From IMG/VR virus record IMGVR_UViG_2537562092_000002, positions 1 to 37,884 of that record: DNA of 37,884 bases. The stretch is one strand, 5' to 3'. Below are positions 397 through 36,516 of the stretch, one piece after another (position 1 is the first letter of the stretch; every line of letters starts with the position of its first letter). Source of the DNA: a virus. Lineage: Duplodnaviria; Heunggongvirae; Uroviricota; Caudoviricetes. The notes under the pieces are model-generated. The model had not been told where the DNA came from. It made no database searches and saw only the letters and a list, made by a program, of their open reading frames with translations. The position numbers and the translations under genes are program-made.

Positions 397-1059
397 CAAA
401 AACACACCTCAATATAATTGAATTTAAGAAAGCACCATTCAATCACTTACAGGAAGTAATCTGATCTTCACAAAAGTCAGCTATCGAATAGCCACAGGCA
501 ACACCGCTATTGATACCCCACACACCATAAGAAGATTATTCCATACAGAAAAAATTATATTTACCCATACTTATAAACTGTAACGGAGCTATGACGTACG
601 AACTAAAGACACTACACTCTAATAGAGTTCTGGTACCTAACCAGTGTTAAATACGAACCAGACATACATTCTATGGATTAATTTTCTCAATATTACGCTA
701 TGAGTGTAGTAACATAATTTACACCACCACACTGTAGTTAGTATATGGGGAGACATTACGATAAAAAGAGATAAGTTATACCACAGATACCACCACACAA
801 TACCATAACTCCCATTAATAATACTAATTAACCTAAATTATTTATTGAACACGAAAACAATGAAGGCCCCACCTCACCTCAGACTAAAGCCGACAATATC
901 CTGAGCAACAGGATATCCAATAGTAAATAGTGGTTACACCAGTTATATTTACTGACTGACCTGTACCAGAGTTTTCTAATACAACGCTGACATGGTAAAG
1001 GCATTAGTCTCCTCCGCAAGTAGCAGAGGAGACTATATGTTAGTCAACGATTAAGTTGT

Positions 1060-2511: not shown

Positions 2512-2741
2512 TAATGGGTTAGTAAAGTAGCAGCAACTCCCGCTATAATAGCGAAATAGCTGCTGTTCAGACCTAATGTTCTGAGAAATACAGAATATCT
2601 GTAGATCTGATGTTTAATAAACCGATAAGGTTAATTCAGTTCATACTGTGTTATTTACCACGAAATATCATTCATGTTTCTCATTCTTAACACCTCCTAA
2701 AATTATTTCACTAACACCTTCCCCCCGATCTTTTTCCTTTC

Positions 2742-2969
2742 TCAGGAATCAGCCAGAACCATAGTGTAAATATTAACGGGCCCACGTAAATTTCCGGGGT
2801 TGCACACGTCAATCTGATTCTGACAGGCAATTGACATCGCTGTTAATAATGATGTTGTAGTCATAGCCAGAAATGCTTTTTCATTGTGTTGAGTTTCAAT
2901 TATTGCATTTCCAGTCATTGATGGTTGCGCATATACTGGATACGGAGTATCCGGTTTGATGTAAGACAT
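2742..2969 (-). pseudogene. Truncated paralog of the DUF3987-like gene (N-terminal ~75 codons only)
   Basis: Translation ...NAIIETQHNEKAFLAMTTTSLLTAMSIACQNQIDVCNPGNLRGPVNIYTMVLADS parallels residues ~20-85 of the 1060..2511 product; the frame stops after ADS while DNA similarity continues a few codons further. Confidence 0.6.
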
Positions 2970-3074
2970 AAATATTTCCTTTTTTCGTAATAACTTTCGG
3001 TTATAGCAGCTATTTCCGCTACAATAGCAACAATAGCTGCTATACAGACTGGATATACTGAAAATACAGACAGT

Positions 3075-3323
3075 TCATCTGGTCTGTATCCAGCAGAGAA
3101 GGTCACTTAACAACCATCCGCAAGATTTCTTTCCGATAGACTTACGTGGTGGAAATGTTCCCTCCCGTTCAAGTTTCCACGCTTGTGTACGAGAAATTGA
3201 CGTGATCTCATATCGTTCCTTTTCACGTACCAGTCTGTCGCATTCAATCCCATAAGCTTTCAAAATGACCAGACGCTGTTCATCTGTTAATGGAAGCCAC
3301 ATACTACCCTCCTGATATATCAA
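3075..3323 (-). CDS. alpA: AlpA-family phage/island transcriptional regulator (HTH)
   Basis: C-terminal ...ITSISRTQAWKLEREGTFPPRKSIGKKSCGWLLSDLLCWI resembles the AlpA/Vis DNA-binding fold; it precedes the DUF3987 fragment. Confidence 0.6.
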   Translation of the reverse strand: MIYQEGSMWLPLTDEQRLVILKAYGIECDRLVREKERYEITSISRTQAWKLEREGTFPPRKSIGKKSCGWLLSDLLCWIQTR

Positions 3324-3992
3324 TACTTTTTATTTCCGGCATGAGCATGAAATGACTAAGTTTCCCGGATAAACAATGAGTGAAAGTCACTATCATTCAT
3401 CCAGTCAACACCTTACAAATAAAATGTAATACTATGATTTTTATAGGTCAAAATACTGAATTGAAATGTTAAAATGGCTTTTAATAGAAAAAATAAAGAC
3501 ATATAGAACCAAATAAAAACAAGCCGCGACCAATAAAAACAAAAATTAATATTAAAAATCCATTATGACGATTTTTGTTGACTAAAATTAGGTTGGGATA
3601 TATAAATAAATCCATGTAAAATTCAAACAAAGCATGGAGGAGTCGCAGGAAGGTGAAATATTTCCATCTAATTTGTGATAATCATCACAAAAATAAGCTA
3701 CAACAAGCGGAGGAAAAGACAATCTGTTGCTGAACAGACAGAAGCAGGCTACGAATGATCGGAAAATGAAGCAAATACGCTTATACAGAAGACGCAGAGG
3801 TAACTGACGGAGACAATCACAATCAGGAGAAAATTATCGTAAATAATGTATAAAATCTCAGGATATAAACAAATGTACACAAGCTATCCACGTAATCAGC
3901 GGCTGGCTCAGGATTAACGTTTCATTTCAGTGGACAACATCGATTCTGTCTGACAGCGGACCAATATGTAGCAAGCAGAAACTTCTGACATC

Positions 3993-5612
3993 ATGGTAAC
4001 TCGGACAATGCAACAAAAGTATCAGTATGATCGTGTTTTATCCGGCGAACTCCACCCATTCCCTGGCATATACGAGGCGGTTTCCGAACAAATCCTTTTG
4101 CTCATTTTTAAAGCACGTCAACTATATCAGGATCCAGAATATCGCCCCTGGTTTGAAGAACAGCACAGAGTACTCTCTGCATTACGTGCCAATACAGAGC
4201 TCCTGAGAATCTTTAGAGAACAAAGAAGCGCTGAAGAACCAAAGCTTACTATTGAAGAGTCTACCTCTCCCCAACCCACTCCTTCTGCTCTTACAGATGC
4301 GCTTAATGTGATGTGCCATTTATACAATGGTTTTGATGAAGGAAATATCAGTCTGAAAACCTGGGGGGCGATGCAAGAGGTACAGACAACATCAACCTTT
4401 ATCAGCCCAGGACCGAGAACCTGGAAAACACCTGAACTGGCAAAGTTTGTAGGAGATGATTTATTTAATATTCTGACTGAATGTAAAGCTTGGAGTTCAC
4501 CAATTCCAGCAGAAGCCCGGCAGGGGTATTGCCATCAGGATCTGTCTGTTGCGCACTCCTGCACCTCAGAGTTGCTGGCACACCTGAAGCAGTATCATGA
4601 AATAGATGAATCAACAATACTTGCCATAACCATTGGTCTGGCGGTTAACGAATTCTACCAGAATAAGCAAAATATTCCAGAATGGCTTTCCTGTTTTGAG
4701 AATAAGAACAAATGGCCCTGGGACTGCAGGAAGTCAGATACTGAAGATGTGCACAGACTGAGAGAACGACTATCGATAATCGGATGTACAGAATTCGTAA
4801 AAAATATGTTTTCAGTCGCCAGTCAGCGTGAAATACAGACAATGTACAATATTTATGTCCATATTTATGCAGCTGAAATCTGTGGTTGGGTAAAAACAAG
4901 CATGGCGTATTTTAAACCAACAGATTTCATCCAGTACACATGGAAATTCGCAACAGTTACTCCGGATAAAGATGAAAAAACCGAGAATACGACCGCATGG
5001 GAAAGGGATTATTGTCAGATAACCATACAACGAGATGAACTCCTTAGATTGATTCGCACTAATACTCTGCAGGATGCCGCAATTCATCTTTCAGGCTGCC
5101 TGCAATATGCATATCTGGAGTCAGTAAAGCATGATATTGACTATCCAGGAATAGCCCCTAATGCTGAAGAAAAGAAAATGAAACACACAGATTCTATTGA
5201 ATTTTCTGGAATTCGGAATAACATCATAAATGCAGTAAAACGGCTGGAATCATTTGAAAAATGGTATGAAACTAATAAAGTTTTGTTGGTAAGTAATAAA
5301 AAAATACGAACAGAGAAGATTGACGTTGTTGTACGACTTGCGGGACTGAAAGCCTATGATTTGCAGGAAGGGGTTCCGGATGGTCTGAAATGGAAAGTTA
5401 AAGATGGCATAAATGAACGCATCAAAACCGATACCAGTTTATGCCTGCCTCAGGATATCAGTGATACATCGCTAAACCGTTATCGTCACGCTGTGACGCG
5501 CATTGTCAACAACGAAATCGACACATTACTGATGGAACAGAAGAAAAAAATAAAAGATTCCCCTACAGCAAAGATCGACATGCGATCCAACCTTTATGGA
5601 GCAAATGTTTGA
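3993..5612 (+). CDS. Hypothetical protein, 539 aa, AT-rich cargo gene
   Basis: Long uninterrupted ORF preceded by a ~670-bp AT-rich intergenic region; no motif recognised by eye. Confidence 0.5.
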   Translation: MVTRTMQQKYQYDRVLSGELHPFPGIYEAVSEQILLLIFKARQLYQDPEYRPWFEEQHRVLSALRANTELLRIFREQRSAEEPKLTIEESTSPQPTPSALTDALNVMCHLYNGFDEGNISLKTWGAMQEVQTTSTFISPGPRTWKTPELAKFVGDDLFNILTECKAWSSPIPAEARQGYCHQDLSVAHSCTSELLAHLKQYHEIDESTILAITIGLAVNEFYQNKQNIPEWLSCFENKNKWPWDCRKSDTEDVHRLRERLSIIGCTEFVKNMFSVASQREIQTMYNIYVHIYAAEICGWVKTSMAYFKPTDFIQYTWKFATVTPDKDEKTENTTAWERDYCQITIQRDELLRLIRTNTLQDAAIHLSGCLQYAYLESVKHDIDYPGIAPNAEEKKMKHTDSIEFSGIRNNIINAVKRLESFEKWYETNKVLLVSNKKIRTEKIDVVVRLAGLKAYDLQEGVPDGLKWKVKDGINERIKTDTSLCLPQDISDTSLNRYRHAVTRIVNNEIDTLLMEQKKKIKDSPTAKIDMRSNLYGANV

Positions 5613-5715
5613 TCGAGCAGTAGAGTACTGAGGGGATAACCGTTCTGTTATCCCCTGTTTATTCTGCCAACTCTCAGGTCTGTCAGAGTTCCAAGAACAC
5701 GATGCGGCTGGCAAA

Positions 5716-6312
5716 TTATGCGGCTTTTCCATTAACAGATTCGGCCACAAGAACAACACCGTGTTTATTTCGATCAGGATGTTCACTCCAGATTTCTGAT
5801 TCAGGAATACTTTCCCCGTCATAGCAGATCCGATCGCCATCAAACGGATAATACCGTGCGGAATCAGTATCTAAAATAAACACTTTCAGATTCGTTGAAC
5901 GACGCGCTATATGCTGCCAGAGAGCTTTACCTCCTTCATATTGCTCGTTATCACTTAATAGTATAACGCCCGCTTTTGTGGCTATCGTTTCATATACAAA
6001 CGTCGCAAGGCCAACATCACGTACAGCACCATCAACAACAATCCCTTCAATCTGGGCAACGTCCTGCTCTTCCCAGAATTTCCGGACAAACACCCCTTCA
6101 AGCTGTGAGCGACGCTGAAGCTCCAGAGTGGCAACAACTTTATGGCGAATATCACCATCAATAACAGAAGGTGCAGCTTCGATTACCGCAGCGAACGGAG
6201 TCTTTGGATCCCAGATGATCTGGTAAAGCACGCCCTGAATAGTTACTCCATCCAGTATCGAAAAACGACGAGCTACAGTAGCAGGGGAGTAAGGCATTGG
6301 AATGACAGCCAT
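5716..6312 (-). CDS. Hypothetical protein, 198 aa
   Basis: ORF convergent with the 539-aa gene, located between the island remnant and attL; no recognised motif. Confidence 0.4.
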   Translation of the reverse strand: MAVIPMPYSPATVARRFSILDGVTIQGVLYQIIWDPKTPFAAVIEAAPSVIDGDIRHKVVATLELQRRSQLEGVFVRKFWEEQDVAQIEGIVVDGAVRDVGLATFVYETIATKAGVILLSDNEQYEGGKALWQHIARRSTNLKVFILDTDSARYYPFDGDRICYDGESIPESEIWSEHPDRNKHGVVLVAESVNGKAA

Positions 6313-6605
6313 TTTATGGCCTAAAATTTGAAAACATCAGTATCAATACTGACCTCATCAGTCTGAGCATATATTGATAAAGTTTTTATGTTTACACTCA
6401 ATAAATACCTTACCAAACAACTAATAGCGATGTCTACATTGCCATTCGACATGCTTACAATTTTTGTCAACAAGAAAGTGAATTTATATCAACGGTAAGA
6501 AGTAAACACGAGGACACCAAAACCAAATGTACACACTTTTGTGCTTTGTGTCCCCTGTGTGTACCCAAATGACAAACTGCAAGAAAATCTAGGCACACAC
6601 TTATC

Positions 6606-6668
6606 TAACTTATTGATTTAAATGGTGCCGATAATAGGAGTCGAACCTACGACCTTCGCATTACGAAT
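6606..6668. repeat. Prophage attL: 63-bp direct repeat containing the 3' 46 nt of thrW
   Basis: taacttattgatttaaatggtgccgataataggagtcgaacctacgaccttcgcattacgaat is identical at 36424..36486. Confidence 0.85.
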
Positions 6669-7315
6669 TATAAGAATCCGCTTCTAATTCAAAGCATTAC
6701 CCTATCAACACTGCGCTCACAAGTCCCACCACATCAAAACATGTAAAGCCTTGCAAGCCATTGCTAGGCCTTATGTGTCTCAGTTTTGTCCCACTACGAC
6801 CCGCATAACCAATAAGAAGATTGCAGTGATGTCAAACGACACAGCAGCCTTCTTTTCCTTCATACTTTCCCCACCCAGCATGCATATCTTCTACCATAAC
6901 TGTAGTGAATGTCTGTTATGAGCGAAGAGCGGACTTGAGACTATTGTAAATGAAAACCATATAATTTTAACCGGCAGAAACACATGAGTAATTTTAAGGC
7001 TAATTAGTTATCTGGGAGATGAGGGGCAAAGCACGATATCGTACACCAATGGAATAACCTTATGATTAATATAAATATAAAAGGCAGAAAGTCTTCCTCA
7101 AAATGGCTTGAATCGGGTGCATCTGTCTGCGAAACGATTTTTTAGACGTTTTTATCGCTTTCAGTTCAGTTTTCCCCTCGAATCCAAGTGACAAAGCCGA
7201 TTTAGTTTTCACACATCCGTACAATGTGCATCCCTCGATGAGCCTTTTCAGGCAAAGTTACGGGGATGCTTGATTCATTTAAACTGAGTTAGTACAACTT
7301 AATTAATAATATCAT

Positions 7316-8362
7316 TTATGCTAGAGTTGAATATTCTCCATTTCCTCGGTCGGTGAGTGTTAATTCGCGGCCATTTTCTGTAAATGTAATGGCATCCAGC
7401 AGGCTTTTTCCTGTTACAGCTATACCATATCCAAGGTTATCAATCTTTGAACTGTCCTCAGATGATATTGGTATTTGTACAAGCATACCAACAACAAGGC
7501 CGTATTTGTTAATTATAGGGCCACCGCTATTCCCCCCCTTAACCCTAGCATTGAATAATAAAAAGTCTTGTGAATCTAAGTAAGAGTGACCAGAACCAAC
7601 AATTCGCCCCTTTGACAGTCGGACAAACGAATTTATATGCGAAACGTCATATAACTTTAATGCATCAAATCCTGGAATGGGTGGAAATCCTATTGATAAA
7701 ATTTCATCCAGTACCGAGGCTTTGGTTGAGACCTTAAGTGGTTGAATATTATCTTCATTCGGAATGGTTGTGAAAACTAAAGCGATATCAATACGTTCAT
7801 CGTTAGATACAAAGATTTTATGTATTGGTAAAGCCTCACCACCAGCTCTAAGTATCCTGATACTCTTCATGTCTTCAATAACATGTCTGGCTGTAAATAT
7901 CGTGTGGTTATTCCCAACAATAAAACTAGTACCAAGATCATGTGAACCATCACTTTTTTCAACAACAACAGGTAAAACGGAAGGACTAAGGCGGTCTATG
8001 ATTGACTCAAATCCATCAGCTATAAAATCATACTTTCCATATTTCGCATCTGATTCATTGAAATTCGGTGCGAAATAGCAACGGTCAAAAAGAGTATGTC
8101 CTGAAGACAATTCCATTAAAATACCTTCAGTTGCTAGCTTTTCACAATTGCGTATTAACTTCATCATATCGAGAGTATTTTCCCACTCAGGTTTGAGACG
8201 GGTCAGGCTCTCAATTGTTTTTCTCTCTTTTACGTTATCGTTTTCCGGTTTGTCATAAAAATATTTCACTATTTCTGTTGGTGTTACATATGTTTTTTTT
8301 ATAGTCATTTTTGTACCCGCGATGACGTTATTCCATATATTTTTCTTTGTAGAAAATATCAC
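7316..8362 (-). CDS. Cytoplasmic trypsin-like (S1/chymotrypsin-fold) serine protease domain protein with ~130-aa N-terminal domain of unknown function
   Basis: His/Asp/Ser triad motifs in canonical order: TARHVIED, DIALVF, GGNSGGPI (GDSGGP-like). No signal peptide. Lies in AT-rich cargo between attL and the invertase. Confidence 0.55.
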   Translation of the reverse strand: MIFSTKKNIWNNVIAGTKMTIKKTYVTPTEIVKYFYDKPENDNVKERKTIESLTRLKPEWENTLDMMKLIRNCEKLATEGILMELSSGHTLFDRCYFAPNFNESDAKYGKYDFIADGFESIIDRLSPSVLPVVVEKSDGSHDLGTSFIVGNNHTIFTARHVIEDMKSIRILRAGGEALPIHKIFVSNDERIDIALVFTTIPNEDNIQPLKVSTKASVLDEILSIGFPPIPGFDALKLYDVSHINSFVRLSKGRIVGSGHSYLDSQDFLLFNARVKGGNSGGPIINKYGLVVGMLVQIPISSEDSSKIDNLGYGIAVTGKSLLDAITFTENGRELTLTDRGNGEYSTLA

Positions 8363-8771
8363 TATTGCTGGTAAATGTTAAGTTCAGTGCTCGCACTAAA
8401 GCTGGATGATCAACGTCGCCCTCGTATGGAAATCAGGTAAGATTCATGTCTACTTGGGGTCTAGGGTAGACAGCATAAAAACGTACGATAGCGTTCGATT
8501 GGCTCTCACCCCCGCCTATAAACCATGAGGTTGATAGGGTAGTATCGTTAGGCAATAGTATACATGTAAGTATCCAACCTAATTGGTCTTGAGATTTCTA
8601 ACTAACGTGTCGTTATGTCCGCTTTTGGCACATAGCAGCCCCAGAGACAGTGGTGTAAAGTCATGGAGGGTCGGTGGGAGGATATTCAGTTTCATTCATG
8701 CCGAAATACGGTAAAATCTATAATAGATGGAAATCATTCAATACTCGCACTATCGAAAGTCCACCAGCCAG

Positions 8772-8808
8772 CCACAGCACGTTCTTGCATACAACGTGCC
8801 TGCGGTTT
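8772..8808. repeat. Hairpin-forming repeat, copy 1 (upstream of the GIY-YIG gene)
   Basis: ccacagcacgttcttgcatacaacgtgcctgcggttt; about 33/37 identical to 9793..9829; inner stem gcacgtt/aacgtgc. Confidence 0.6.
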
Positions 8809-8900
8809 TTGAGACCGGTCCGATCATCAAACGAAACATAAAATTAGCTCACACTATGAGGAAAAGTATCTTTTTTTACTATGTAAATTCAAAGGATTAG

Positions 8901-9770
<870 letters not shown>

Positions 9771-9792
9771 GTCTTTAAGTGATAAGCATAAA

Positions 9793-9829
9793 CCGCAGCA
9801 CGATCTTGCATACGACGAGCCTGCGGTTT
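9793..9829. repeat. Hairpin-forming repeat, copy 2 (between the convergent GIY-YIG and invertase genes; possible bidirectional terminator)
   Basis: ccgcagcacgatcttgcatacgacgagcctgcggttt; outer stem aaccgcag/ctgcggtt; direct repeat of 8772..8808. Confidence 0.55.
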
Positions 9830-10419
9830 CATTTATCTCCGACCGGAAACATCTTATACAGTGTCGATACACCAACATCATAGATGATCGCTACCTTCTG
9901 GCGAGGAATTCCTGCTGCAATTAATCGTCCGGCCTGCTCCCATTGTTCTGGTGTAAGTTTGGGGCGACGTCCACCAATTCGTCCCTGTGCGCGAGCAGCT
10001 TCCAGTCCAGCTTTTGTTCGTTCAACAATCAGTTCACGCTCCATTTCAGCCAGGGCACCCATCACATGAAAGAAAAAGCGCCCCATTGGGGTACTGGTAT
10101 CAATTGAATCCGTCAGACTACGAAAGTTGATGCCTCGTTCGCGCAACTCCTCCACCAGCACGACAAGATGCCGCATACTGCGCTCCAGCCGGTCCAGTTT
10201 CCAGGCCACCAGCGTGTCACCTGCCGATAATGTCCTGAGCAGTTTTTTCAGTCCCGGCCTTTCGGACTTTGTACCGCTTATCTTGTCTTCAAAAATCAGC
10301 TCGCATCCTGCACAGTTCAGCGCATTACGTTGTAGATCTGTGTTCTGGTCATTTGTTGATACACGTACATAGCCAATAAGCATGTTAAATCCCCCTGGTA
10401 AAAGCAGGAATGATGCCAT
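9829..10419 (-). CDS. Serine-recombinase DNA invertase (Pin/Gin/Hin/Cin family); likely true start at MLIGYVRVST (~10383)
   Basis: MLIGYVRVSTNDQNTDLQ...GRRPKLTPEQWEQAGRLIAAG is the classic resolvase/invertase catalytic domain plus C-terminal HTH; adjacent to an invertible tail-fibre segment. Confidence 0.85.
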   Translation of the reverse strand: MASFLLLPGGFNMLIGYVRVSTNDQNTDLQRNALNCAGCELIFEDKISGTKSERPGLKKLLRTLSAGDTLVAWKLDRLERSMRHLVVLVEELRERGINFRSLTDSIDTSTPMGRFFFHVMGALAEMERELIVERTKAGLEAARAQGRIGGRRPKLTPEQWEQAGRLIAAGIPRQKVAIIYDVGVSTLYKMFPVGDK

Positions 10420-10907
10420 TTGCTTGTTATTTCTTCATTTTCATAAACGTTGGTTTGGGAGAAGGTGCTCCAGCTATTGGCGTTCCGTTCTTCTGGCCGT
10501 CCGCTGCAATGCCAAATACTGTAATCGACAGCTGGTCCAGTATGGTGTTTTTGAAGTTCAACGGGGCGAAATTTTCTGCCTCTGATTACCCTGTGCTGGC
10601 AGAAGTGTTTCCTTCGCTGGTATTACCTGAAGCCCGCGGTGATTTCATTCGTATCTGGGATGACGGGCGAGGTGCCGATGGTGGTCGCGAATTATTAAGC
10701 TGGCAGGAAGCTACAAACTTTTCTCAGTTTGCCGGGAATATAGGCGGAGGTGCGGGACACGCAATTAACTTTCATGATGGCATCGCCGGAAATCAGCCAG
10801 GGTTTTCACGATTTAATTTCACCAGTAACTCTGTGGGTGATGGTGTGAATTTTGTTGCTGTCAGACCGCGAAATATTGCATTTAACTTTCTTGTGAGGGC
10901 TAAATAA
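10410..10907 (+). CDS. Alternative tail-fibre C-terminal variable segment (Sv'), promoterless in this orientation
   Basis: Frame runs through the gix site (..NVGLGEGAPAIGVPFFWPS..); PFFWPS-type motif typical of Mu/P1/P2 fibre tips; no independent start expected. Confidence 0.55.
   Translation: MMPFACYFFIFINVGLGEGAPAIGVPFFWPSAAMPNTVIDSWSSMVFLKFNGAKFSASDYPVLAEVFPSLVLPEARGDFIRIWDDGRGADGGRELLSWQEATNFSQFAGNIGGGAGHAINFHDGIAGNQPGFSRFNFTSNSVGDGVNFVAVRPRNIAFNFLVRAK
10438..10463. other. Invertase crossover site (gix/hix-like), left boundary of invertible segment
   Basis: ttttcataaacgttggtttgggagaa fits the TTnTCnnAAACCnnGGTTTnnGAnAA pattern of hix/gix sites and is an inverted repeat of 12260..12285 (about 20/26). 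Confidence 0.65.
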
Positions 10908-11500
10908 TGAAACCTGTTTTTGATGAAAATGGGCTGGCGACAGTGCCGGGCGATATGCGTTGTTTTTATTATGATGCAGTAACGAATGAATATACTGGCT
11001 GGTCTGATGAATATATTAATACTGGCGTAAGTATGCCCGCCTGTTCCACTGGTATTGACCCGGGCGAATACATTCCGGGGAAAGTGGCAGTATTTACGGG
11101 TAAGGGATGGAGCCATGAAGAAGACCACCGCAATGAGACTGTTTACTCAATCGAAAATGGCGCAGCTGTTACAGTGGATTATATCGGTGCCATCAAAGAC
11201 GGTTATGTCACGCTTTCACCGTTAACGCCATACGATAAATGGGATGGTGAGAAATGGGTGACAGATACTGAGGCACAGCATAGTGCCGCAGTAGACGCAG
11301 CAGAAGCACAGCGCCAGTCGCTGATTGATGCTGCAATGGCTTCCATCAGTCTGATTCAACTGAAATTACAGGCCGGACGGAAGCTGACGCAGGCAGAAAC
11401 AACCCGACTTAACGCCGTGCTGGATTACATTGACGCGGTGACGGTAACAGATACCAGCACCGCGCCGGATGTCATCTGGCCTGAACTGCCGGAGGCGTAG
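10907..11500 (+). CDS. Alternative tail-fibre assembly chaperone (U'-like)
   Basis: Immediately follows Sv' with ATGA overlap; size and position match a Tfa/U-family chaperone inside the invertible segment. Confidence 0.55.
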   Translation: MKPVFDENGLATVPGDMRCFYYDAVTNEYTGWSDEYINTGVSMPACSTGIDPGEYIPGKVAVFTGKGWSHEEDHRNETVYSIENGAAVTVDYIGAIKDGYVTLSPLTPYDKWDGEKWVTDTEAQHSAAVDAAEAQRQSLIDAAMASISLIQLKLQAGRKLTQAETTRLNAVLDYIDAVTVTDTSTAPDVIWPELPEA

Positions 11501-11912
11501 GCCATTCAATATCTGGCGCACCGGAAGTATCGACCAGTTCCAGTGTGTCCAGATAATCCAGCCACAAATTATATTGCGCCAGTTCCTCACCTTTCAGGCG
11601 ACCAATCGCCGCTTTACCAGGCCATTGCTTACTGTTTATGTATTCGTTGACCTGATTAATCAATTGCTGCTTTTCCAGTTCGGCTGCGGCAATTTGTTCC
11701 TCATGAGTTGGCGGTGGAATATCAATCCATGCAGGCATTCCGTCGATGACGCCTCTGTATTTTCCTTCTGGTGCTTCCTTCATAAATTCGGCGGCAACAG
11801 TGTCGTCAATTTCGATTCCATCATCGGGCCATTCGCCGGATTCCTGATAAGCGATTTTAAGCTCCACAGGGAAAAACGCATTTTTATCGGCGCTGAAAAT
11901 ATATTTCTGCAT
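11472..11912 (-). CDS. Tail-fibre assembly chaperone (U-like), expressed orientation
   Basis: Follows the tail-fibre gene on the minus strand; its C-terminus overlaps the 3' end of the U' gene in convergent arrangement, as in the Mu G segment. Confidence 0.55.
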   Translation of the reverse strand: MQKYIFSADKNAFFPVELKIAYQESGEWPDDGIEIDDTVAAEFMKEAPEGKYRGVIDGMPAWIDIPPPTHEEQIAAAELEKQQLINQVNEYINSKQWPGKAAIGRLKGEELAQYNLWLDYLDTLELVDTSGAPDIEWPTPPAVQAR

Positions 11913-11914
11913 TT

Positions 11915-12628
11915 CTACCGTCCTATCGAAATATAACTGAATCTGTATTGCTGTGAGATATCACTGGTTGCCACATGCCACGCTGAATTACTGATATGTT
12001 CAAAATTTACAGACAAAACCTGCGGGGCAGGATTCGACGGGTCTGACTGAACGGCATCAGACATAACACTGACTGAAACCATCGGCTGATTAGGGAATGG
12101 TATAGGGAAGTGTCCACTGATAAAGCGGGTCGTGTTTCCTGAAAAAGTGCCAAACTGAACAATATATCCACCTGGTAGCCCGAACCATCCCGAACCAGAA
12201 GCGAATGCTCCCATATCCGGTATCTGATTATCTCCTGTGCCCACATCCCTTTTCGCCGCTTCTCCTAAACCAAGGTTTTCGAGAGCCGTTTTCACCGTGC
12301 CATCCGATTTGATATCGCCAAACGGATTCTTGCGGCTCAGGTATTCAACAGCAAACCCCGATCCCAGCAATTCAACAAAACCGGGCAGATCACCATTATC
12401 AAGCACATCCCGTTGCGTTTTATCACTTACAAACTGGGCCAGAGCTGCAGCAATAAAGCTGGCCTGCCGAATAACCTTATTGACTTGCGCACTGGATGCT
12501 TTCCCTGCTGTAAATCCGGATATAAGCGCAGGCAACGCTTCCCATTCCTCCTGCGACATAACATTGGCATTTCGATCAGTTGCAAACGCTTTAAAGTCAT
12601 TTTTCGCCATCAGAGTAATACTCCCCAT
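11915..12628 (-). CDS. Tail fibre (S-like): constant N-terminal part plus variable C-terminal part inside the invertible segment
   Basis: The gix site at 12260..12285 lies in-frame (..[13 protein letters not shown]..), so the C-terminal ~115 aa are exchangeable on inversion; follows a gp48-like gene. Confidence 0.6.
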
Positions 12629-17297: not shown

Positions 17298-18361
17298 TAA
17301 AGCCCTCTTTCCCTCGCTGATGAGGAAACAAGATCCGCCGCGCCACGCGCTTCGCACATCATATCCATGTACCACGCCTGGCCCCTTGTATCGCCAGTGT
17401 ACATAATCCCGCGCACAATATAAACGCCATCCGTTGCGATGCTGGCAGGTTGTGCTGTGGTGCCGCTGAGTGTGATATTTCCGTCCGTGTTCTGGTCGGT
17501 GCTCTGCCCACCAGCCATCGCAATATCATTGTTCGACAGCGCGGTGCGGTACACGGAAGCCTGATCCAGCTGAATAAGCCCGTTAACCCGGATGTTCGGA
17601 TTAATAAGCGCGCGGACGTTTACGCCGTTACCGATAGTCTGCTGCGGCATGCCAATAAGCCCGGTAGCGCTGTTGAGCACAATCGCTTCATGAACATATT
17701 CGTTATTCGCCACCATCTGGCGCTGACCGTCCACGAATTGCCATGTTGCGCCACATTGCCCGGCTACGTTATCCATTAGATGCCGCGTCATGCCAAAGAG
17801 TACCCGCCCCCGGGGGAATACAGTAGCAGGCATTTCAGGCGTCAGGCCTTCGGTCGCGCCTTTGGCCTCAAAGTCTTTCATCAGCGCACGGTTTACATCA
17901 GCGACCGTGTAACCGGCAGCCAGCGTCTGTGAGGTTATACTGGTGGCAAAAGCCAGATCAGTATCGGCTGCCTGAATCAGGACGTAGGAATCAACCGGGC
18001 TGTCTTTTCCTGTGACCGAGTAGCGAATTTCACCGCTGAAAATCAGTCCGTAGTTGCGGCCATCACTCTGGCCCACGTCCGCCGCATCAACCTCCCGCAC
18101 GGTCCCGACATCGCTTGCCGACACCTCCGGCGCGATACCGTCGTAACCCGCAATCAGACGCACTTTCGAAAACTCCTGCCCGGTAATTCGGTTCACAGTA
18201 TCTGCCGAGAGGTTATAAATTTTGATAGTCCCTACCCGGGACGCGCTGCTGATGTTGAACCAGTCGATCGTAAAGGTGACTTTGAAATCACTTAGCTCAA
18301 TTCCCTGACCGTTCCCGTCCACAAGCTGCAGCTCGAAATGTCTCATCCAGTTCTGTGTCAT
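17297..18361 (-). CDS. Baseplate hub / tail protein (Mu gp44 / P2 gpD-like)
   Basis: 354-aa ORF at the conserved position between the tape-measure-proximal genes and the baseplate spike. Confidence 0.5.
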   Translation of the reverse strand: MTQNWMRHFELQLVDGNGQGIELSDFKVTFTIDWFNISSASRVGTIKIYNLSADTVNRITGQEFSKVRLIAGYDGIAPEVSASDVGTVREVDAADVGQSDGRNYGLIFSGEIRYSVTGKDSPVDSYVLIQAADTDLAFATSITSQTLAAGYTVADVNRALMKDFEAKGATEGLTPEMPATVFPRGRVLFGMTRHLMDNVAGQCGATWQFVDGQRQMVANNEYVHEAIVLNSATGLIGMPQQTIGNGVNVRALINPNIRVNGLIQLDQASVYRTALSNNDIAMAGGQSTDQNTDGNITLSGTTAQPASIATDGVYIVRGIMYTGDTRGQAWYMDMMCEARGAADLVSSSARERGL

Positions 18362-18363
18362 GC

Positions 18364-18666
18364 TTACTCCGTTGATACCAGTAAATGACTGCGCCCGCCC
18401 AGGTCAGTTTTCGTGGGATAATCCTGTGTGTTGTCATCGCAGACCACCAACAGCTTAAAACCAAGTCCCATACAGGCGTACTGCGCCAGCAGGTCGGCAC
18501 CAGTGACGAGAGGAATACCGGAGATTACCGGCTCCCCTCTGTCGTTCTGCAGGTCCATAATCCAGTACAGATCGCGCCATATGATGCTAATCCGCCAGGT
18601 AACACCACCTAAGACGATGCTGAACTGCTGGTTGTCCGCTGTCAGCGGAATTTCCTGAATTGTCAT
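18364..18666 (-). CDS. Phage tail protein, 100 aa
   Basis: Tightly coupled ORF in the tail operon. Confidence 0.35.
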   Translation of the reverse strand: MTIQEIPLTADNQQFSIVLGGVTWRISIIWRDLYWIMDLQNDRGEPVISGIPLVTGADLLAQYACMGLGFKLLVVCDDNTQDYPTKTDLGGRSHLLVSTE

Positions 18667-19253
18667 TAGCCGCCCCCCAGTAATGACGCCACGTTACCCG
18701 TGATGCTTTTCAGCAGTGAAGTATCTGGAGGCTTTGTGGTTTTGTTGCCGCTATTCTGTACCGCCGACGTGCTGGCCCCTTCCTTCATGTTGGTTTTATC
18801 CGCGACGGTAATCTGCTGTGTCCGGGAGATAAGGACCTCCCTCAGGGTGAGGACGGCAGACAGGACGTTTTCGGTTGTCTTGTCCGTCGTCACTTCCAGC
18901 GCCCGGATCAACATGTTGCTGTACAGTCGTTTACCGGTTACCACATCGAAGGGGATACGGCTTTCCTGCAGATCCAGTAGCTCCTGATACGTCTGCTGAG
19001 GACTCAGGCCGAGCAGGCTGGTAGCCGTCAGATTACTGGCAAAATCCAGCAATGCGCCGCCACCGGCGAAACCAACCTCCATCACCACTTCTGACGGTTT
19101 TTTATAGGCATGATCAGCGACAGCGGCCCCAACCTCTACCGGATGCTCTGTTATTTCAAGCATATCTGTATGCTTCTCTGAAATAACAACACTGGGAACA
19201 ATCATTCCTATTTTTCTGCTCTGCTGATGAAAAAGTGTAGAGAGAATATCCAC
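18666..19253 (-). CDS. Phage tail/baseplate assembly protein, 195 aa
   Basis: Tightly coupled ORF directly downstream of the tape measure gene. Confidence 0.35.
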   Translation of the reverse strand: MDILSTLFHQQSRKIGMIVPSVVISEKHTDMLEITEHPVEVGAAVADHAYKKPSEVVMEVGFAGGGALLDFASNLTATSLLGLSPQQTYQELLDLQESRIPFDVVTGKRLYSNMLIRALEVTTDKTTENVLSAVLTLREVLISRTQQITVADKTNMKEGASTSAVQNSGNKTTKPPDTSLLKSITGNVASLLGGG

Positions 19254-21262
19254 TAACCCACCCTCACCTGATTACTTCGCATGACCTGAGCATTTGCAGA
19301 CTGTTGCCGACGTGCAACCTCATTACCGACAGCGTGCGGATCTCCGCCACCGTAAATGTGGTAGGTATTTTGCTGGTTAACCTCTGTCACTTTGCCACTA
19401 ATTCCCGCCACGGCAGCCTTATTAATCAGCTCTCGAGAATAGATATTTCTTCCATTCTCATGCTGGATAATGCTGCTCATCAATGCTGACATGGTTTGCG
19501 GATCGCTCATATTCAGGGCAGCCCGGGGATCCACTCCCAGTCGTTGCGATACAGCCCTGATATACGCAGTTGTGTTGTTATTATCAGACGCAGGTGCCCA
19601 GGTAGAGATAATTTTCTCCACACTGTTTATTCCCCGTCCGGCGTACAGCATTAACTGACGAGCAAGAGCCCGTAATCCATCAAAGGCAGTTTCAAATCTG
19701 GCAAATCGCCCGCCCGGGCGTTCAAGAGAAGCCCCTGCCTGACCAGCAAAATTAAGGTTTCCCGGATTGTTATTCCGTTCTCCTCGTTTCGTAGCCTGTG
19801 CATGTTGTTCCGGCTCATCATCACCAAACCAGCCGCGTACCGTCCGGCCCACACTGCGGGGATCAAATCCCCAGTGCTCTTTAATCCAGTCGGCAGTACT
19901 GTTAGCGCTGTCTGTAACCATCGGCATCGCTGACGGATTTTCGCTGCCCTGATTAAGTATCTGTTTGCCGATGCTGACGGCATCAGCCCAGCGGCCATCT
20001 TTGATAGCGTTGAGCAGGTCGGCGATCATGTTCAGCATTTTGCTGAATTCGCCCATCTGGTCGATGAAGTTGCTGAAATCCCACTTCAGGGACCATGATT
20101 TGGGGTCAATATTGAGCAGTTTCGCCAGCGCTTTCACCAGGTCGTTAACGGTCGTTTTAAGGTCACGAACCATCTTCAGCGCGGCATCAACCTCCGGTTT
20201 CCACTTGCCCCAGTCAATCAGGCTGTCGCCGCCTTCCTTCCAGGTCTGATAGTCCTCCCACAGGAGGGCAATCCCCGCCGCCAGCGCGGTAATGAGGCCA
20301 ATCGGCGACATCCAGAACGTACTGTTCAGAATGCGCAGCGCAATCGTCAGTGCGCCAAACAGCGAGATCAACTCCCGCGTTTGCTTATCCAGCGATTGCC
20401 ACCAGGTGATGAGGCCTGATGTCCCCTCAATCAGTCTGAAGAACAGCCGCCCGATAATATCCCCGAGCGCCAGAATGCCTTTTATGGCTTTCGTCAGGGT
20501 CTGCTCGATACGCGGGAAGTTGTCCAGGATATGGCGGCGCAGTGTGTCCAGCGAACCCGCAAGCCCACCCGCAAGATTAGAGCCGATTTTGTCACGGGCC
20601 ATGCCTGCCATCGCGCCAAACTCACGCAGGGAGGTCATAAATTTGTTGGAGCTTCTGGCCGCCTCGTCAGCATTGAAGCCGATAGCTTTCGCCATTGCGC
20701 TGTACTGCCCGGAGAAGCCACCCACACCGCGACGCATAGCCAACAGGGTATTTTCGTCAATGCCCAGCATCTGCGCATACTGGTTAGCACGGTAATACGG
20801 CATGTCGCTGAGCTTCTGGCCTACCCCTGTAAAAATAGCGGCCATGTCACGCATGTTACCGCTGGCATCCCGTGTCTGTACCCCCAGACGATTCAGAAAT
20901 CCCTCCGCCCCGGGATTATTACGAATAAACCGGGAGAGGTTTTCCAGAGAAGATCGCGCAGCGTCCACGCTGCCGCCAACCTGCGAAACCGCATAGCCAA
21001 TAGACTGAATTCCCTGGACTGTCGCGCCGGTGCGCTGTGACGCCCAGTAAAGATTATCCAGGCCGGAGGCGATCTTAGCCGTGAAGGCCACCACGGACAG
21101 CGCCGCTCCTTCGACGGCCAGCCCCATTTTGATGACATTTGCAGTTGTACCGGCGAGGACAGAACCGAATTTTTTCGCTCCTGCATCATCCACACTGAAG
21201 CCAAGCGAGACAAGGAAATCTTTAATAGTCTCGGCGTTCATTATCCTCTCTCCATTTCTCAA
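19253..21262 (-). CDS. Tail tape measure protein, possibly with a C-terminal muralytic domain
   Basis: 669-aa protein with Ala/Gly-rich, helix-prone repeats; the largest gene in the tail cluster, downstream of the tube and chaperone genes. Confidence 0.6.
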   Translation of the reverse strand: MRNGERIMNAETIKDFLVSLGFSVDDAGAKKFGSVLAGTTANVIKMGLAVEGAALSVVAFTAKIASGLDNLYWASQRTGATVQGIQSIGYAVSQVGGSVDAARSSLENLSRFIRNNPGAEGFLNRLGVQTRDASGNMRDMAAIFTGVGQKLSDMPYYRANQYAQMLGIDENTLLAMRRGVGGFSGQYSAMAKAIGFNADEAARSSNKFMTSLREFGAMAGMARDKIGSNLAGGLAGSLDTLRRHILDNFPRIEQTLTKAIKGILALGDIIGRLFFRLIEGTSGLITWWQSLDKQTRELISLFGALTIALRILNSTFWMSPIGLITALAAGIALLWEDYQTWKEGGDSLIDWGKWKPEVDAALKMVRDLKTTVNDLVKALAKLLNIDPKSWSLKWDFSNFIDQMGEFSKMLNMIADLLNAIKDGRWADAVSIGKQILNQGSENPSAMPMVTDSANSTADWIKEHWGFDPRSVGRTVRGWFGDDEPEQHAQATKRGERNNNPGNLNFAGQAGASLERPGGRFARFETAFDGLRALARQLMLYAGRGINSVEKIISTWAPASDNNNTTAYIRAVSQRLGVDPRAALNMSDPQTMSALMSSIIQHENGRNIYSRELINKAAVAGISGKVTEVNQQNTYHIYGGGDPHAVGNEVARRQQSANAQVMRSNQVRVG

Positions 21263-21418
21263 TGCGCCGCTGGTTATCCGCTTTTACCGCCAGATGGTCA
21301 TTCAAGAGAGCAATGTCGTACAAATCGACAGAGCCATCTTTAAGTGCTGTATAAGGAATTAACCCGGCGTCAACCGGATTGAGAAGGTAGGACAGCCCGT
21401 CCGGCAGGCTGTTAAACG

Positions 21419-21871
21419 TCAGCCCTGTTGCAGGCTCTGCGTCGTGCTGGTAAGGGGTGTAGGCAAAAAATTTCCCAGCGAATCGGCGACCACCCGCGCC
21501 ACCAGCTGCAGCATGACCAGCAGGTCAATATCATCAAACATCAGTTCGCCCTGGGTAAATACCGGCACCCATCCGTCCATATGACGCCGCGATACCACCG
21601 CAAGACAGGGATGAATAATCGCATCGGTGTCATCTTCGGTCAGGGAAGACAGTTCCTCAGCGATACGCGGGAGCATGGTTTCAAACACCGGTTTTAACTG
21701 CTCGAATTTCACGGTGTCGATTTTGCCGTCAGCAGGCAAACGGGAGCGAATGCTCCCGAAATCTGACATCATTCCCGCCAGTACCGGCAGAAGTTTGCGG
21801 GTCACTTTCAGCTGGTCAAAAACGCTGAGTTTTGCCACGCGATATTTCACGCCTTTGATTTCGAATTCCAT
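21419..21871 (-). CDS. Tail assembly chaperone
   Basis: 150-aa ORF between the tube and tape measure genes, followed by a 156-bp apparent gap. Confidence 0.4.
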   Translation of the reverse strand: MEFEIKGVKYRVAKLSVFDQLKVTRKLLPVLAGMMSDFGSIRSRLPADGKIDTVKFEQLKPVFETMLPRIAEELSSLTEDDTDAIIHPCLAVVSRRHMDGWVPVFTQGELMFDDIDLLVMLQLVARVVADSLGNFLPTPLTSTTQSLQQG

Positions 21872-21874
21872 GTA

Positions 21875-22315
21875 TTAAAACTCCCCGAGAACCTGGTCAA
21901 TCTTGCCGCAGTCAAACACCCACGGCATCGTATTACCGGTTTTAGCGTTGGCATTATCCGGTTGTTTCTGGAACGCAACACTGCGTGCCGTGATGATGTC
22001 GCCGCTGACCTTGTTGCGGATCACGATAACGTTATTCCCCCATGTGGCAGAAGACTGGCTCTGTGCGTTATACGCCAGCGACAATTTTTTATTTGTCGGT
22101 GATGTCTTCAGAAGGTTAACGGTAATCGTCCCGCTTTTATCTGCATGGAGGCTGTGCATCACTTCACCATCAGCACCGATGGTCATGGTGTTTTTAGGAC
22201 CGCCCATCGCAACCACAATCCCCTCTTCAGAACTTGCAGAACCGTACCCGAGGTCAATCGAACCGGTCGGGCCGGTCAGCGTCGCAGTGACATCCATAAA
22301 AGAATAGGTAGACAT
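21875..22315 (-). CDS. Tail tube protein
   Basis: 146-aa ORF immediately downstream of the sheath gene. Confidence 0.5.
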   Translation of the reverse strand: MSTYSFMDVTATLTGPTGSIDLGYGSASSEEGIVVAMGGPKNTMTIGADGEVMHSLHADKSGTITVNLLKTSPTNKKLSLAYNAQSQSSATWGNNVIVIRNKVSGDIITARSVAFQKQPDNANAKTGNTMPWVFDCGKIDQVLGEF

Positions 22316-22325
22316 TCACTTCCCC

Positions 22326-23471
22326 TTAGCGAACAACGTTAATCTGTACGTCAGCGTAATGAACCGCGCCTGCAAGTTTTATTGCAGCCTGAATCACCGG
22401 AGCCTTACGGGCTTCACGTTCTGATTGTGCCTGTTCATCCAGCGGCTGGGCGTATACGTAATAACCTTTGGGCAGTGTGTCACCTGATGACAACTGACCA
22501 AGGTCGCCCCCGTTCCATACGCCCGGAGCAATCAGTCCATTCTGAACGGCCTGATCCAGTGATTTTTCAACATTTGATAACAGTCGGGTAATACCGGCTT
22601 CAGTCTGGGGAACTTTCGTGGTGCTGGTATAAAGCAGGTTATAGAGGTTGGTCTGCACATAATTCTGTAACCAGTCCAGGCCGTGGCGTTCATCAAAGAA
22701 ATCGCCGTTAGCCATCACTCCCTGCTGGAGGATAGCCGTATCATTCTGGTAGTACACGAATACATTGCAGTTTTTTGCATCAAGTGCCGATGCCTGGCTG
22801 ACTGTCAGTGTTTCATACCCGACACCCGGCTCCTGCTTAAACTTGAGCGTAATCGCGGTATTACTGCCATTGAAATTAACCGTGAATACCCGGCCAAATG
22901 CAGATAACGCAGCGTATTTATTACCCGATGAATACTGAATAAAACTGCGTGAATATCCGGCGGTTTTCAGTTTTGATGCCAAATCATCGCTGGATGCAGT
23001 CTGCAGGCATTTATCATCGCTTGTCGTAATCGCCAGAATACGGCTTACAGAAGAGGATTCGATCGCCGCAGCCACTTTCAGCCAGTCTGCATCCGGAATA
23101 TCTTCATCGTCTGCAATCCCCAGCCCATACCATGAAGTATAATCGAGCATGGCATTCACAGCCTGCTCCAGCGTCTCAGGCGTGGCCTGTTCGCTGTCAC
23201 CCTTCGTTTTCACCCAACGACCAACAAAAACCTCCTGAGGTTTCGGTGATTGTGAGAAAAACACCTGCGCAGCCTTATATTCTGGTGATTCCACGCCAAA
23301 ATCTTTTCCAATATCTTCCGCGGCAGAATAACGGCGAATGCGCTCACTTACCGGAATGATTGTGGACGGGCCGAGAATGAGTAATGCACCAAAATTTCGC
23401 CCTGATGCTGCACGCGGCGACATGATCACATCAACATTAACAACGTTTGATACAGGCAAGCCCTGTGCCAT
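22326..23471 (-). CDS. Contractile tail sheath protein
   Basis: 381-aa ORF heading the tail cluster, followed by tube, chaperone and tape measure. Confidence 0.55.
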
Positions 23472-23474
23472 AGC

Positions 23475-24755
23475 TTAATCTCCGAAAAAGATGACTGGTG
23501 CTTCCACCAGCGATTTAATACCGTACTCGCGCACAACCTTCCGGCGCAGGCGCACCGTCATATCGTAGCGGCGGACCCATTGCTGATTAATAAATTCAGG
23601 GAAGGGGGTCAGACCTGTGTAATCGCCAAGAGACAGCCCCAGCGCATTCAGTGCTGCATTGTTCTGCGGTACAGATATACCGTCACGAAACCGGGACGCA
23701 TACACCATCCCCGCCGGACCATAAAACGAAGCCATACACTCAATCGTTTCATGCCGCCAGAGCTTAGAGCCATCATCGGTCTGTCTGGTGAATGCCGGAC
23801 TGTCATCACCTGACCATCCGATACCCAGTTTGATATGCGCATCAACGGCAGCCTGTACCCATTCGGATGGAATCAGGACGCCTTCCGCTGATGCGCTGTA
23901 GTTCAGATCAAGTTCCTGTGCCACCACCACCGGATTATCGATTTTCTCGCATTCCCTGCGATACCACTCTTCATCCTTGCGAGGATCATCCCGCCAGTGG
24001 AATGTGAATACCGGTATCTTCCCGCCATGACGCTTCTGAGCGAACGGGTTAGCCATGCCGTTAACTGAACTCAGGTCGATACGGCAACGCGTCGTTTGTG
24101 ACAACGCCGCATCAATCAGCAGAGGACGCTGAAGGAATGCAGCCTCATCAACCAGATAAAGCGTGGTACGGTCACCACGACCAATATTATCGCCAGCCTC
24201 GCCTTTGATAACGGCACCAGTTTCAGGAAACTCAACACGCATATATGGCGCGTGCTTCTTCTCACTCCACGAACCGCGAAACTCTACAGGTAGCGTTTCC
24301 ACGAACTTGCGCGCCTTCCAGAACAATGCTTTCGGGTCACCAGTGCTGTCGACGTATTCCTCTTTACGGGAGCCAAAACCGATAACCATTTCTTTGTTGA
24401 AGAGACAAAGCGAGCATGCCAGTCCGATCGCGGTCCAACTGAGCCCCATTTCACGGGATTTTTCGGTAATACCATTCTCCCGATTGCTCCAGCGTTCCAT
24501 AATCCAGTGGATCCACTCCTCCTGCTTAGGGAAGAGTAAAAACGGAATGGTCACCGGCAGGCCATAATCAATATTACGCGGGTCCGTTGTCATGCCCCAG
24601 TCGATGATGAACTGAGCCGGATTGGTTCGGTAAAACTGTTTTAGTGCAGGCAATATTTCAGGATTCTGGCGAATGCGCTGTAGGCGTTCCATCCGCCATT
24701 CAAAAACCATCTGGTAATCAGGATGTTTAAAATCGAAGGGGAATGGTAACGGCAT
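23475..24755 (-). CDS. Terminase large subunit (TerL), possibly C-terminally truncated or fused
   Basis: Deviant Walker A-like [11 protein letters not shown] and Walker B-like [10 protein letters not shown]; follows terS. Only ~220 aa remain after Walker B, and the next gene is the tail sheath rather than a portal. Confidence 0.6.
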
Positions 24756-27489: not shown

Positions 27490-27565
27490 TGGTGCTGGTT
27501 AACGGACTTGAACCGCTACCCATTCGCTTACAAGGCGACCGCTCTACCATTGGAGCTAAACCAGC
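27490..27565 (-). tRNA. Phage-encoded tRNA, anticodon UGU (Thr) by manual folding
   Basis: Reverse complement GCTGGTTTAGCTCCAATGGTAGAGCGGTCGCCTTGTAAGCGAATGGGTAGCGGTTCAAGTCCGTTAACCAGCACCA folds as a cloverleaf (7-bp acceptor, GGTTCAAGTCC T-arm, loop CUUGUAA). Confidence 0.6.
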
Positions 27566-27570
27566 ATATT

Positions 27571-27645
27571 TGGCGGGACAGCGTGGACTCGAACCACGAT
27601 AAGAAGGTTAACAGCCTTCCGTAATGACCTTTATACGACTGACCC
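27571..27645 (-). tRNA. Phage-encoded tRNA, anticodon GUU (Asn) by manual folding; slightly degenerate D-arm
   Basis: Reverse complement GGGTCAGTCGTATAAAGGTCATTACGGAAGGCTGTTAACCTTCTTATCGTGGTTCGAGTCCACGCTGTCCCGCCA: perfect anticodon and T stems, loop CUGUUAA, one acceptor mismatch. Confidence 0.5.
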
Positions 27646-36426: not shown

Positions 36427-36486
36427 CTTATTGATTTAAATGGTGCCGATAATAGGAGTCGAACCTACGACCTTCGCATTACGAAT
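36424..36486. repeat. Prophage attR: 63-bp direct repeat overlapping the 3' part of intact thrW
   Basis: Identical to 6606..6668. Confidence 0.85.
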
Positions 36487-36516
36487 GCGCTGCTCTACCA
36501 ACTGAGCTATATCGGC
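36441..36516 (-). tRNA. thrW: tRNA-Thr (anticodon CGU), thrW
   Basis: Reverse complement GCCGATATAGCTCAGTTGGTAGAGCAGCGCATTCGTAATGCGAAGGTCGTAGGTTCGACTCCTATTATCGGCACCA is a canonical 76-nt cloverleaf with CGT anticodon, adjacent to proA as in E. coli. Confidence 0.9.

Follow-up and report, generated by a model that had tools for sequence, protein, structure and literature searches.

The stretch analysed here (the window) is the 37,884-nucleotide virus record IMGVR_UViG_2537562092_000002 (Caudoviricetes), in which an Escherichia coli prophage carries a tail assembly chaperone (TAC) gene followed by an apparent gap. All genes relevant to this locus lie on the minus strand, in the order sheath, tube, TAC, gap and tape measure. 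The module also holds a Dit-like protein, a Pam3_gp18 plug and a hub, and the surrounding genes form a contractile-tail module of the E217/KPP10/Pam3 type. The TAC open reading frame (ORF), 21871..21419, encodes 150 amino acids (aa) and ends with the TGA at 21421-21419. Since the tape-measure ORF begins at TTG 21262, a gap of 156 nucleotides (nt) remains at 21263-21418, as had been reported in the original prediction. An in-frame ATG at 21241 is the more plausible tape-measure start; it is preceded by GGAGAGAGG and is selected by the Prokaryotic Genome Annotation Pipeline (PGAP) in a record 100% identical to window positions 21100-22000; measured to this ATG, the gap is 177 nt. The features of the locus are as follows.

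21419..21871, minus strand: TAC gene, 0 frame, encoding the predicted short isoform; matches Pfam Phage_TAC_15 (PF21822, E=2e-31) and PHROG 1688 'tail assembly chaperone' (E=2e-65).
21490..21495, minus strand: GGGTGG, a weak Shine-Dalgarno-like hexamer, 13 nt 5' of G_GGA_AAT and 19 nt 5' of T_TTT_TTG.
21471..21476, minus strand: GGGAAA directly 5' of the core heptamer, creating G_GGA_AAT and A_AAT_TTT; a frozen synonymous choice.
21464..21470, minus strand: T_TTT_TTG, the core slippery heptamer and proposed -1 shift site, in phase with the TAC frame.
21222..21470, minus strand: -1 extension from the heptamer to the TAA at 21224-21222, which together with TAC residues 1-135/136 would give a 216-aa long isoform.
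21240..21356, minus strand: DUF6889 domain, residues 173-211 of the predicted long isoform (Pfam PF21829, E=9e-20).
19253..21241, minus strand: tape measure protein gene, 662 aa from ATG 21241; matches PHROG 2276 'tail length tape measure protein' (E=1.5e-282).
21875..22315, minus strand: tail tube gene directly upstream of the TAC gene; matches Pfam KPP10_Orf10 / Phage_Tube_PhiTE (E=9e-61).
22326-23471, minus strand: sheath gene; DUF3383 / E217_gp31_N.

A slippery heptamer had been anticipated towards the chaperone gene's 3' end, and three were found there. The 13-nt motif GGGAAATTTTTTG at 21476-21464 (minus strand), read as CTG GGA AAT TTT TTG in the 0 frame, contains the in-phase X_XXY_YYZ heptamers G_GGA_AAT, A_AAT_TTT and T_TTT_TTG at 49-55 nt before the TAC stop codon. 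By itself the heptamer is at chance level: the window contains 12 copies of TTTTTTG, and 13 ± 3 are expected. What stands above chance is its phase, its position, its invariance (synonymous positions included) and a conserved open -1 frame.

In the -1 frame, 100 codons without a stop run from 21524 (about 21525) to the TAA at 21224-21222, overlapping the tape-measure gene (start ATG 21241) by 20 nt; the +1 frame meets a stop codon 7 nt past the end of the TAC ORF. The gap is thus crossed by an overlapping -1 ORF with a DUF6889 match, not closed by stop codons in all frames. The idea that it hides a frameshift product is supported, with different boundaries: the product would begin 49-55 nt upstream of the TAC stop and end at 21222 instead of 21262. 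The accompanying statement that no ORF had been called in between holds only approximately. A 33-aa ORF with a TTG start (21323..21222, minus strand) is the tail end of the -1 frame, and unconserved ORFs exist on the plus strand. The latter are shadows, since frames other than the sense -1 frame are open in 24 of 75 loci or fewer.

Conceptual translation through the motif yields a 216-aa fusion in which Phage_TAC_15 covers residues 6-136 (109.7 bits against a cutoff of 22) and DUF6889 follows (70.6 bits, cutoff 23.9; positions 2-40 of the 40 in the model), so that the two domains stand in N- to C-terminal order within one polypeptide. The extension by itself matches PHROG 4364 (E=2e-23). A shift at either upstream heptamer would produce ...SLGNF-FAYTPYQ... 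and one at T_TTT_TTG ...SLGNFL-AYTPYQ..., each in a protein of 216 aa; the predicted junction stretches are SLGNFLAYTPYQ or SLGNFFAYTPYQ. Ribosomal slippage at U_UUU_UUG is predicted to give the Leu-carrying junction peptide ...SLGNFLAYTPYQHDAEPATGLTFNSLPDGLSYLLNPVDAGLIPYTALK, and a ...GNFFAYT... junction fits either an upstream-heptamer slip or transcriptional slippage.

We assembled 76 loci: 10 phage loci (67-98% nucleotide identity) and 66 prophage loci, the latter from one genome per species of Enterobacterales plus a few other taxa (TAC 46-86% aa identity). TAC identity across the 76 related loci is 46-98%, and the set spans at least 20 enterobacterial genera and phages. Every one of the 76 has an in-phase T_TTT_TTN, which lies 40-61 nt upstream of the TAC stop (49 nt in most); the heptamer is TTTTTTG in most loci, TTTTTTT in five and TTTTTTC in one. 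The exact 13-mer occurs in 62 of these diverse loci and in 79 of 80 close IMG/VR viral contigs. G_GGA_AAT has been lost in nine of the 76 loci and A_AAT_TTT in five. Because the upstream heptamers are missing from some lineages that keep T_TTT_TTN, the latter appears to be the essential core, to which GGGAAA would be accessory. In one locus (L151), a -1-frame TGA immediately precedes TTT TTT, and a shift there would therefore be confined to the T_TTT_TTN heptamer.

The extension is conserved too. It runs 182-197 nt beyond the TAC stop in 74 of the 76 loci and measures 78-80 aa in 70 of 75 relatives. The two exceptions are L122, whose extension ends after 39 aa, and L141 (Izhakiella australiensis), in which the -1 frame continues 725 nt past the TAC stop and diverges after ...DGSVDLAD; both prophages are probably in decay. 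The sense -1 frame is the sole frame of the six that is stop-free across the gap, being open in 74 of 75 loci. This bears directly on a reading of the gap as a non-coding spacer or regulatory region (a terminator, promoter or RNA element) with a fortuitously open -1 frame. A terminator-like hairpin does lie at 21380-21361; it has a poor T-tail, falls inside conserved coding sequence and belongs to a kind of site found at chance frequency (3 against 1.5 ± 1.3 expected). No promoter-like site was found in the gap region, Rfam returned no match in the region at E<=1, and no conserved RNA structure was detected. Together with a Pfam match above the gathering score, the conservation data effectively refute the non-coding reading, whose probability we regard as negligible.

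Synonymous codon choice was analysed in 74 unique TAC genes, which provided 50 conserved degenerate codon columns with a median normalised entropy of 0.745. Entropy is zero in only three of them, and these are the consecutive codons of the motif: N134 (AAT, 70/70), F135 (TTT, 74/74) and L136 (TTG, 68/68). The next-lowest columns are G133 (GGA, 69/74), L132 (CTG, 65/74) and V127 (GTG, 67/74). Elsewhere in the gene, the other two Phe columns divide between TTC and TTT at about 55:45 and the other Leu columns favour CTG. The shift site is thus conserved at the nucleotide level beyond what the protein requires. Synonymous variation is also reduced around GGGTGG, where R126 is CGG in 50 of 67 sequences and V127 has an entropy of 0.27, compared with 0.68-0.96 for other Val columns; speculatively, GGGTGG could be an upstream stimulator. 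The suppression beyond the core, at GGGAAA and at GGGTGG, is not fully accounted for by any explanation tested.

Variation by codon position delimits the coding frames. Upstream of the heptamer, the mean column entropies at the three codon positions are 1.19/0.58/0.39, the third position of the 0 frame being the most variable; directly downstream they are 0.99/0.82/1.38, and the most variable position is the third of the -1 frame. This switch is already present in the 42 nt in which both frames are open, and the pattern persists through the gap. The -1 peptide is kept from its first residues (FFARTPRQRD..., consensus FFARTPRQRDAGP...), upstream of the TAC stop, and the 0-frame tail is poorly conserved. 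These patterns indicate that the heptamer is precisely where selection changes over from the 0 to the -1 frame.

The same data weigh on the annotation that the gap currently receives in databases, namely an independent small gene with its own start codon. In E. coli prophages, RefSeq/PGAP records 21222-21395 (minus strand) as a 57-aa 'DUF6889 family protein', and older records use 'NTP pyrophosphohydrolase'. PGAP makes this call in the locally identical record (21395..21222, minus strand), and stand-alone database entries of 46-78 aa are numerous. The start that PGAP assigns is nevertheless a CTG at 21395. The -1 frame of the window contains no ATG or GTG, and its only two TTG codons (21323 and 21305) fall within the conserved peptide and domain. 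Annotated starts vary between genomes, and no conserved start codon for the -1 frame exists among the related loci. Moreover, both peptide conservation and -1 periodicity set in at the heptamer, which is still within the TAC gene and about 75 nt upstream of where annotation places the start; no promoter was found, and distant homologues carry the domain fused to a TAC domain. An independent gene is accordingly very improbable, and both labels look like artefacts of an unrecognised frameshift. A literature search for DUF6889 found no papers.

The distant homologues were identified by an exhaustive phmmer search with the fusion as query. Seven proteins of 191-210 aa (30-41% identity) contain the two regions in a single ORF, TAC_15 at the N terminus and DUF6889 at the C terminus, with DUF6889 above its cutoff in all seven and TAC_15 in five. 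All align across the junction free of gaps; P0268 and P0209, for instance, read ...SLARFFTYAP... and ...SLARFLAYEP..., respectively, where the window has ...SLGNF[F/L]AYTP.... The contigs were read for two of these proteins (P0268 and P0209; L162-L164), and in both cases the long gene has, directly upstream, a separate and shorter TAC_15 gene that encodes 167-170 aa. These two-gene chaperone pairs are located as follows.

L162, 108-1238: two-gene chaperone pair.
L163, 1989-3130: two-gene chaperone pair.
L164, 577-1718: two-gene chaperone pair.

The codons equivalent to the junction are the non-slippery TTC CTG in L163/L164 and TTT TTC in L162, and in the two-gene relatives the paralogous N-domains have diverged. 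L163 has its chaperone genes after the Dit-like and plug genes, a gene order unlike that of the window. Two routes to the chaperone pair thus appear to exist within this family: separate genes for the short and the long form and, in the enterobacterial lineage, a single gene combined with a shift.

One further fusion is of a different kind. P0001 (98% identical) is an in-frame fusion that arises from a T7 instead of a T6 run (L012, from one Logan assembly). The T7 may be a homopolymer error and we give it little weight; it does show that a one-U insertion suffices for fusion. This is exactly the product expected if the long isoform were made by transcriptional slippage, in which RNA polymerase would add one U on the T6 run and standard translation would then yield ...SLGNFFAYT.... 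The conserved core is indeed a homopolymer, T6 or T7 in 76 of 76 loci. Productive transcriptional slippage in bacteria has, however, been described for runs of about nine A or T (PMC5009743), and the run here is T6, never exceeds seven and has not been expanded in any lineage. It always lies in X_XXY_YYZ phase, and GGGAAA, which extends the slippery pattern but not the homopolymer, is synonymously frozen as well. In phage P2, annotation and description alike treat the identical heptamer as a site of translational frameshifting. We therefore consider transcriptional slippage unlikely.

A structural model was examined for the domain layout of the fusion. AlphaFold2 with an alignment of diverse representatives gave a predicted local distance difference test (pLDDT) score of 70.4, and this model was used for domain layout only; a run on a close-homologue alignment scored 40.8 and was discarded. 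In the model of the near-identical fusion P0001, the TAC domain (residues 1-100) has a pLDDT of 79-89, the last TAC helix runs up to residue 136, which is precisely the shift site, and a low-confidence linker (residues 136-163) leads to short C-terminal helices in the DUF6889 region. The best fold matches in BFVD are myovirus tail assembly chaperones (E=1e-7), and a fold search of the PDB with the model gave no informative match.

Taken together, the evidence argues that two isoforms of a myovirus tail assembly chaperone are produced from one start codon through a -1 frameshift, to which we assign a probability of roughly 85%. As in the class described by Xu, Hendrix & Duda (2004), overlapping frames lie between the tube and tape-measure genes, an in-phase heptamer precedes the TAC stop, and the downstream frame has no conserved initiation signal of its own and encodes a protein conserved from the shift site onward. 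Under this model, most ribosomes would keep to the 0 frame as far as its end at 21419 and so make the 150-aa short TAC. A minority would slip back by one nucleotide on the U-rich motif GGGAAAUUUUUUG (21476-21464), with U_UUU_UUG as its core, and read the -1 frame to 21222, giving the 216-aa long isoform composed of the TAC_15 domain, a flexible linker of about 28 residues and the C-terminal DUF6889. The slip would occur without an RNA structure and be decided by tRNA re-pairing on the heptamer, as at the identical P2 E/E+E' heptamer. By analogy with lambda G/GT, both isoforms would coat the tape measure protein through their shared TAC domain and neither would remain in the virion; the C-terminal domain of the rare long form would recruit tube protein, allowing first the tube and after it the sheath to polymerise around the tape measure. 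We infer both the ribosomal nature of the recoding and the assembly role, the latter by analogy.

RNAalifold on 32 sequences gave -0.4 kcal/mol with no covarying pairs for the region downstream of the motif, that is, no conserved stimulatory structure. Single-sequence folds after the motif have z-scores of about -1, with no local hairpin until about 20 nt past the heptamer.

Several points weigh against this interpretation. A systematic survey in E. coli places H_HH.U_UU.Y among the efficient heptamers and does not list U_UU.U_UU.G; given this, and given that no conserved stimulatory structure accompanies the motif, the efficiency of the shift may be low. Ribosomal slippage and RNA polymerase slippage on T6 are inseparable by sequence alone. 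The tube-recruiting role of DUF6889 is argued from analogy only. Finally, since the prophage has lost its head genes, the signal in this copy may be a relic that is no longer selected or used, though intact.

The middle heptamer, A_AA.U_UU.U, belongs to the efficient H_HH.U_UU.Y class, and since U_UU.U_UU.G is not listed as efficient, the upstream GGGAAA may matter for shift efficiency. A more specific proposal, which we regard as tentative and rather doubtful, is that of a composite, structure-free 'slippery runway'. The three consecutive heptamers G_GGA_AAU, A_AAU_UUU and U_UUU_UUG, perhaps aided by the Shine-Dalgarno-like GGGUGG, would offer each ribosome several chances to shift and so set the isoform ratio without RNA structure, yielding two long products that differ at residue 136 (Phe or Leu). 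The family, which includes both frameshifting and two-gene members, might also be a natural system for asking why phages keep recoding.

The wider window shows the state of the prophage. Relative to NZ_CP158426.1, about 7.2 kb containing the portal, head and connector genes have been deleted, so the E. coli prophage is head-less and defective, with its tail and lysis modules remaining. At 23475-24755 (minus strand), a 426-aa ORF is an in-frame fusion with its junction at about 23820-23826; it joins an N-terminal terminase large subunit (PHROG_2, E=1.6e-19, residues 33-333) to a C-terminal tail/neck terminator (Pfam Phage_tail_terminator_9, residues 311-424). The deletion junction is contiguous in none of 5,426 complete E. 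coli genomes. Colinearity of the whole window with NZ_CP158426.1 was rejected from tRNA positions and BLAST and holds for parts, including 17354-23826; the bio/ybhB context belongs to NZ_CP158426.1 and not to the window. Positions 1-12400 lie outside the tail module seen in NZ_CP158426.1 and are a mosaic of IS1, YfjI-family, GIY-YIG and retron-/defence-like genes; no E. coli genome covers 80% or more of this part, which has piecemeal matches to different genomes. Three tRNA genes are present.

27490-27565, minus strand: tRNA-Thr(TGT).
27571-27645, minus strand: tRNA-Asn(GTT).
36441-36516, minus strand: tRNA-Thr(CGT), thrW-like, near the right end.

The pair corresponding to the first two sits between a Q antiterminator and a holin gene in NZ_CP158426.1. 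The pairing of the prophage tRNA-Asn(GTT) with the AAT codon of the slippery motif is treated as coincidence only, no evidence linking them having been found. tRNA-Thr(CGT) adjoins sequence that matches integrase/proA-linked prophages, and this region is probably the attachment site. In the tail module, the C-terminal third of the tape measure protein (residues ~450-650) matches phrog_873 (E=3e-49) and phrog_7182 'tail injection transglycosylase' (E=1e-26). These are lytic transglycosylase and endolysin PHROGs, and relatives are annotated as SLT-domain proteins, which suggests a tape measure with a peptidoglycan-cutting domain.

The main value of these results lies in annotation; the general picture of phage tail assembly is unchanged. 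In about 300 complete E. coli genomes and many other Enterobacterales, the locus is split into a chaperone and a tiny protein with an improvised start, where a single joined, frameshifted coding sequence (CDS) should probably stand. DUF6889 gains a provisional function as the C-terminal domain of the long tail assembly chaperone isoform. The conserved tail-chaperone frameshift, with a P2-type T_TTT_TTG, would be extended to lambdoid prophages with E217/KPP10/Pam3-like contractile tails.

Among known systems, the closest in operation is P2 gpE/gpE+E'. In both lambda and P2, two proteins sharing an N terminus are made in a fixed ratio, are both needed for tail assembly and are absent from virions. 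P2 and the window share a myovirus setting, the order of tube, chaperone and tape measure, an in-phase T_TTT_TTG (with no downstream stimulatory structure in P2 and no conserved one detected here) and a small domain of about 37-40 residues at the C terminus of the extension, which ends 8 nt inside the tape-measure gene in P2 and 20 nt inside it here. They differ in dimensions, with a chaperone of 150 aa here versus 91 in P2 and a heptamer 49 nt versus 25 nt before the stop, and the window, unlike P2, has GGGAAA preceding the heptamer, which adds two in-phase heptamers. The protein families are also distinct: E belongs to PF10109 (Phage_TAC_7) and E' to PF06528 (Phage_P2_GpE), whereas the window matches PF21822 and PF21829 only. 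An hhalign comparison of the extension with P2 E' gave a probability of 0.4%, and no homology between DUF6889 and E' was detected. The system in the window thus appears to work like that of P2 while standing outside its protein family.

Lambda gpG/gpGT offers the same proposed division of labour, the shared domain binding the tape measure and the extension binding the tube protein (PMC5009743). Lambda is a siphovirus that uses G_GGA_AAG, and its protein families are unrelated to those of the window at the sequence level; the ratio of about 30:1 and the protein interactions were measured for lambda. Similar in layout and motif, though from other phage lineages and hosts, are TAC-N/TAC-NC of Pseudomonas phage Adele and other Vandenendeviridae and Andersonviridae with simple contractile tails of the KPP10/E217 type (PMC12846349). 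In these phages the downstream ORF is routinely mis-annotated as hypothetical, an open -1 frame is conserved, and the 3' end of TAC-N is marked by GTTTTT, a poly-T motif that does not vary (PMC12846349). This 2025 paper argues in the same way for a frameshift in chaperones of Pakpunavirus and Andersonviridae that have a poly-T motif.

A homologous counterpart is in Klebsiella phage Mulock (MN098327), whose locus has 68% nucleotide identity and shares with the window both the exact GGGAAATTTTTTG motif and a homologous -1 extension. The depositors of this genome entered a joined CDS as 'tape measure chaperone frameshift product', an annotation that is absent from the genome announcement. The T4-like arrangement, in which separate genes encode the short and the long TAC (summarised in PMC10885494), yields the same pair of products without recoding; it is this arrangement that L162 and L163/L164 resemble, in contrast to the one gene plus frameshift of the window. 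Set among these systems, the locus appears to be an ordinary, overlooked case of the conserved tail-chaperone -1 frameshift, a well-known phage mechanism missed by automatic annotation.

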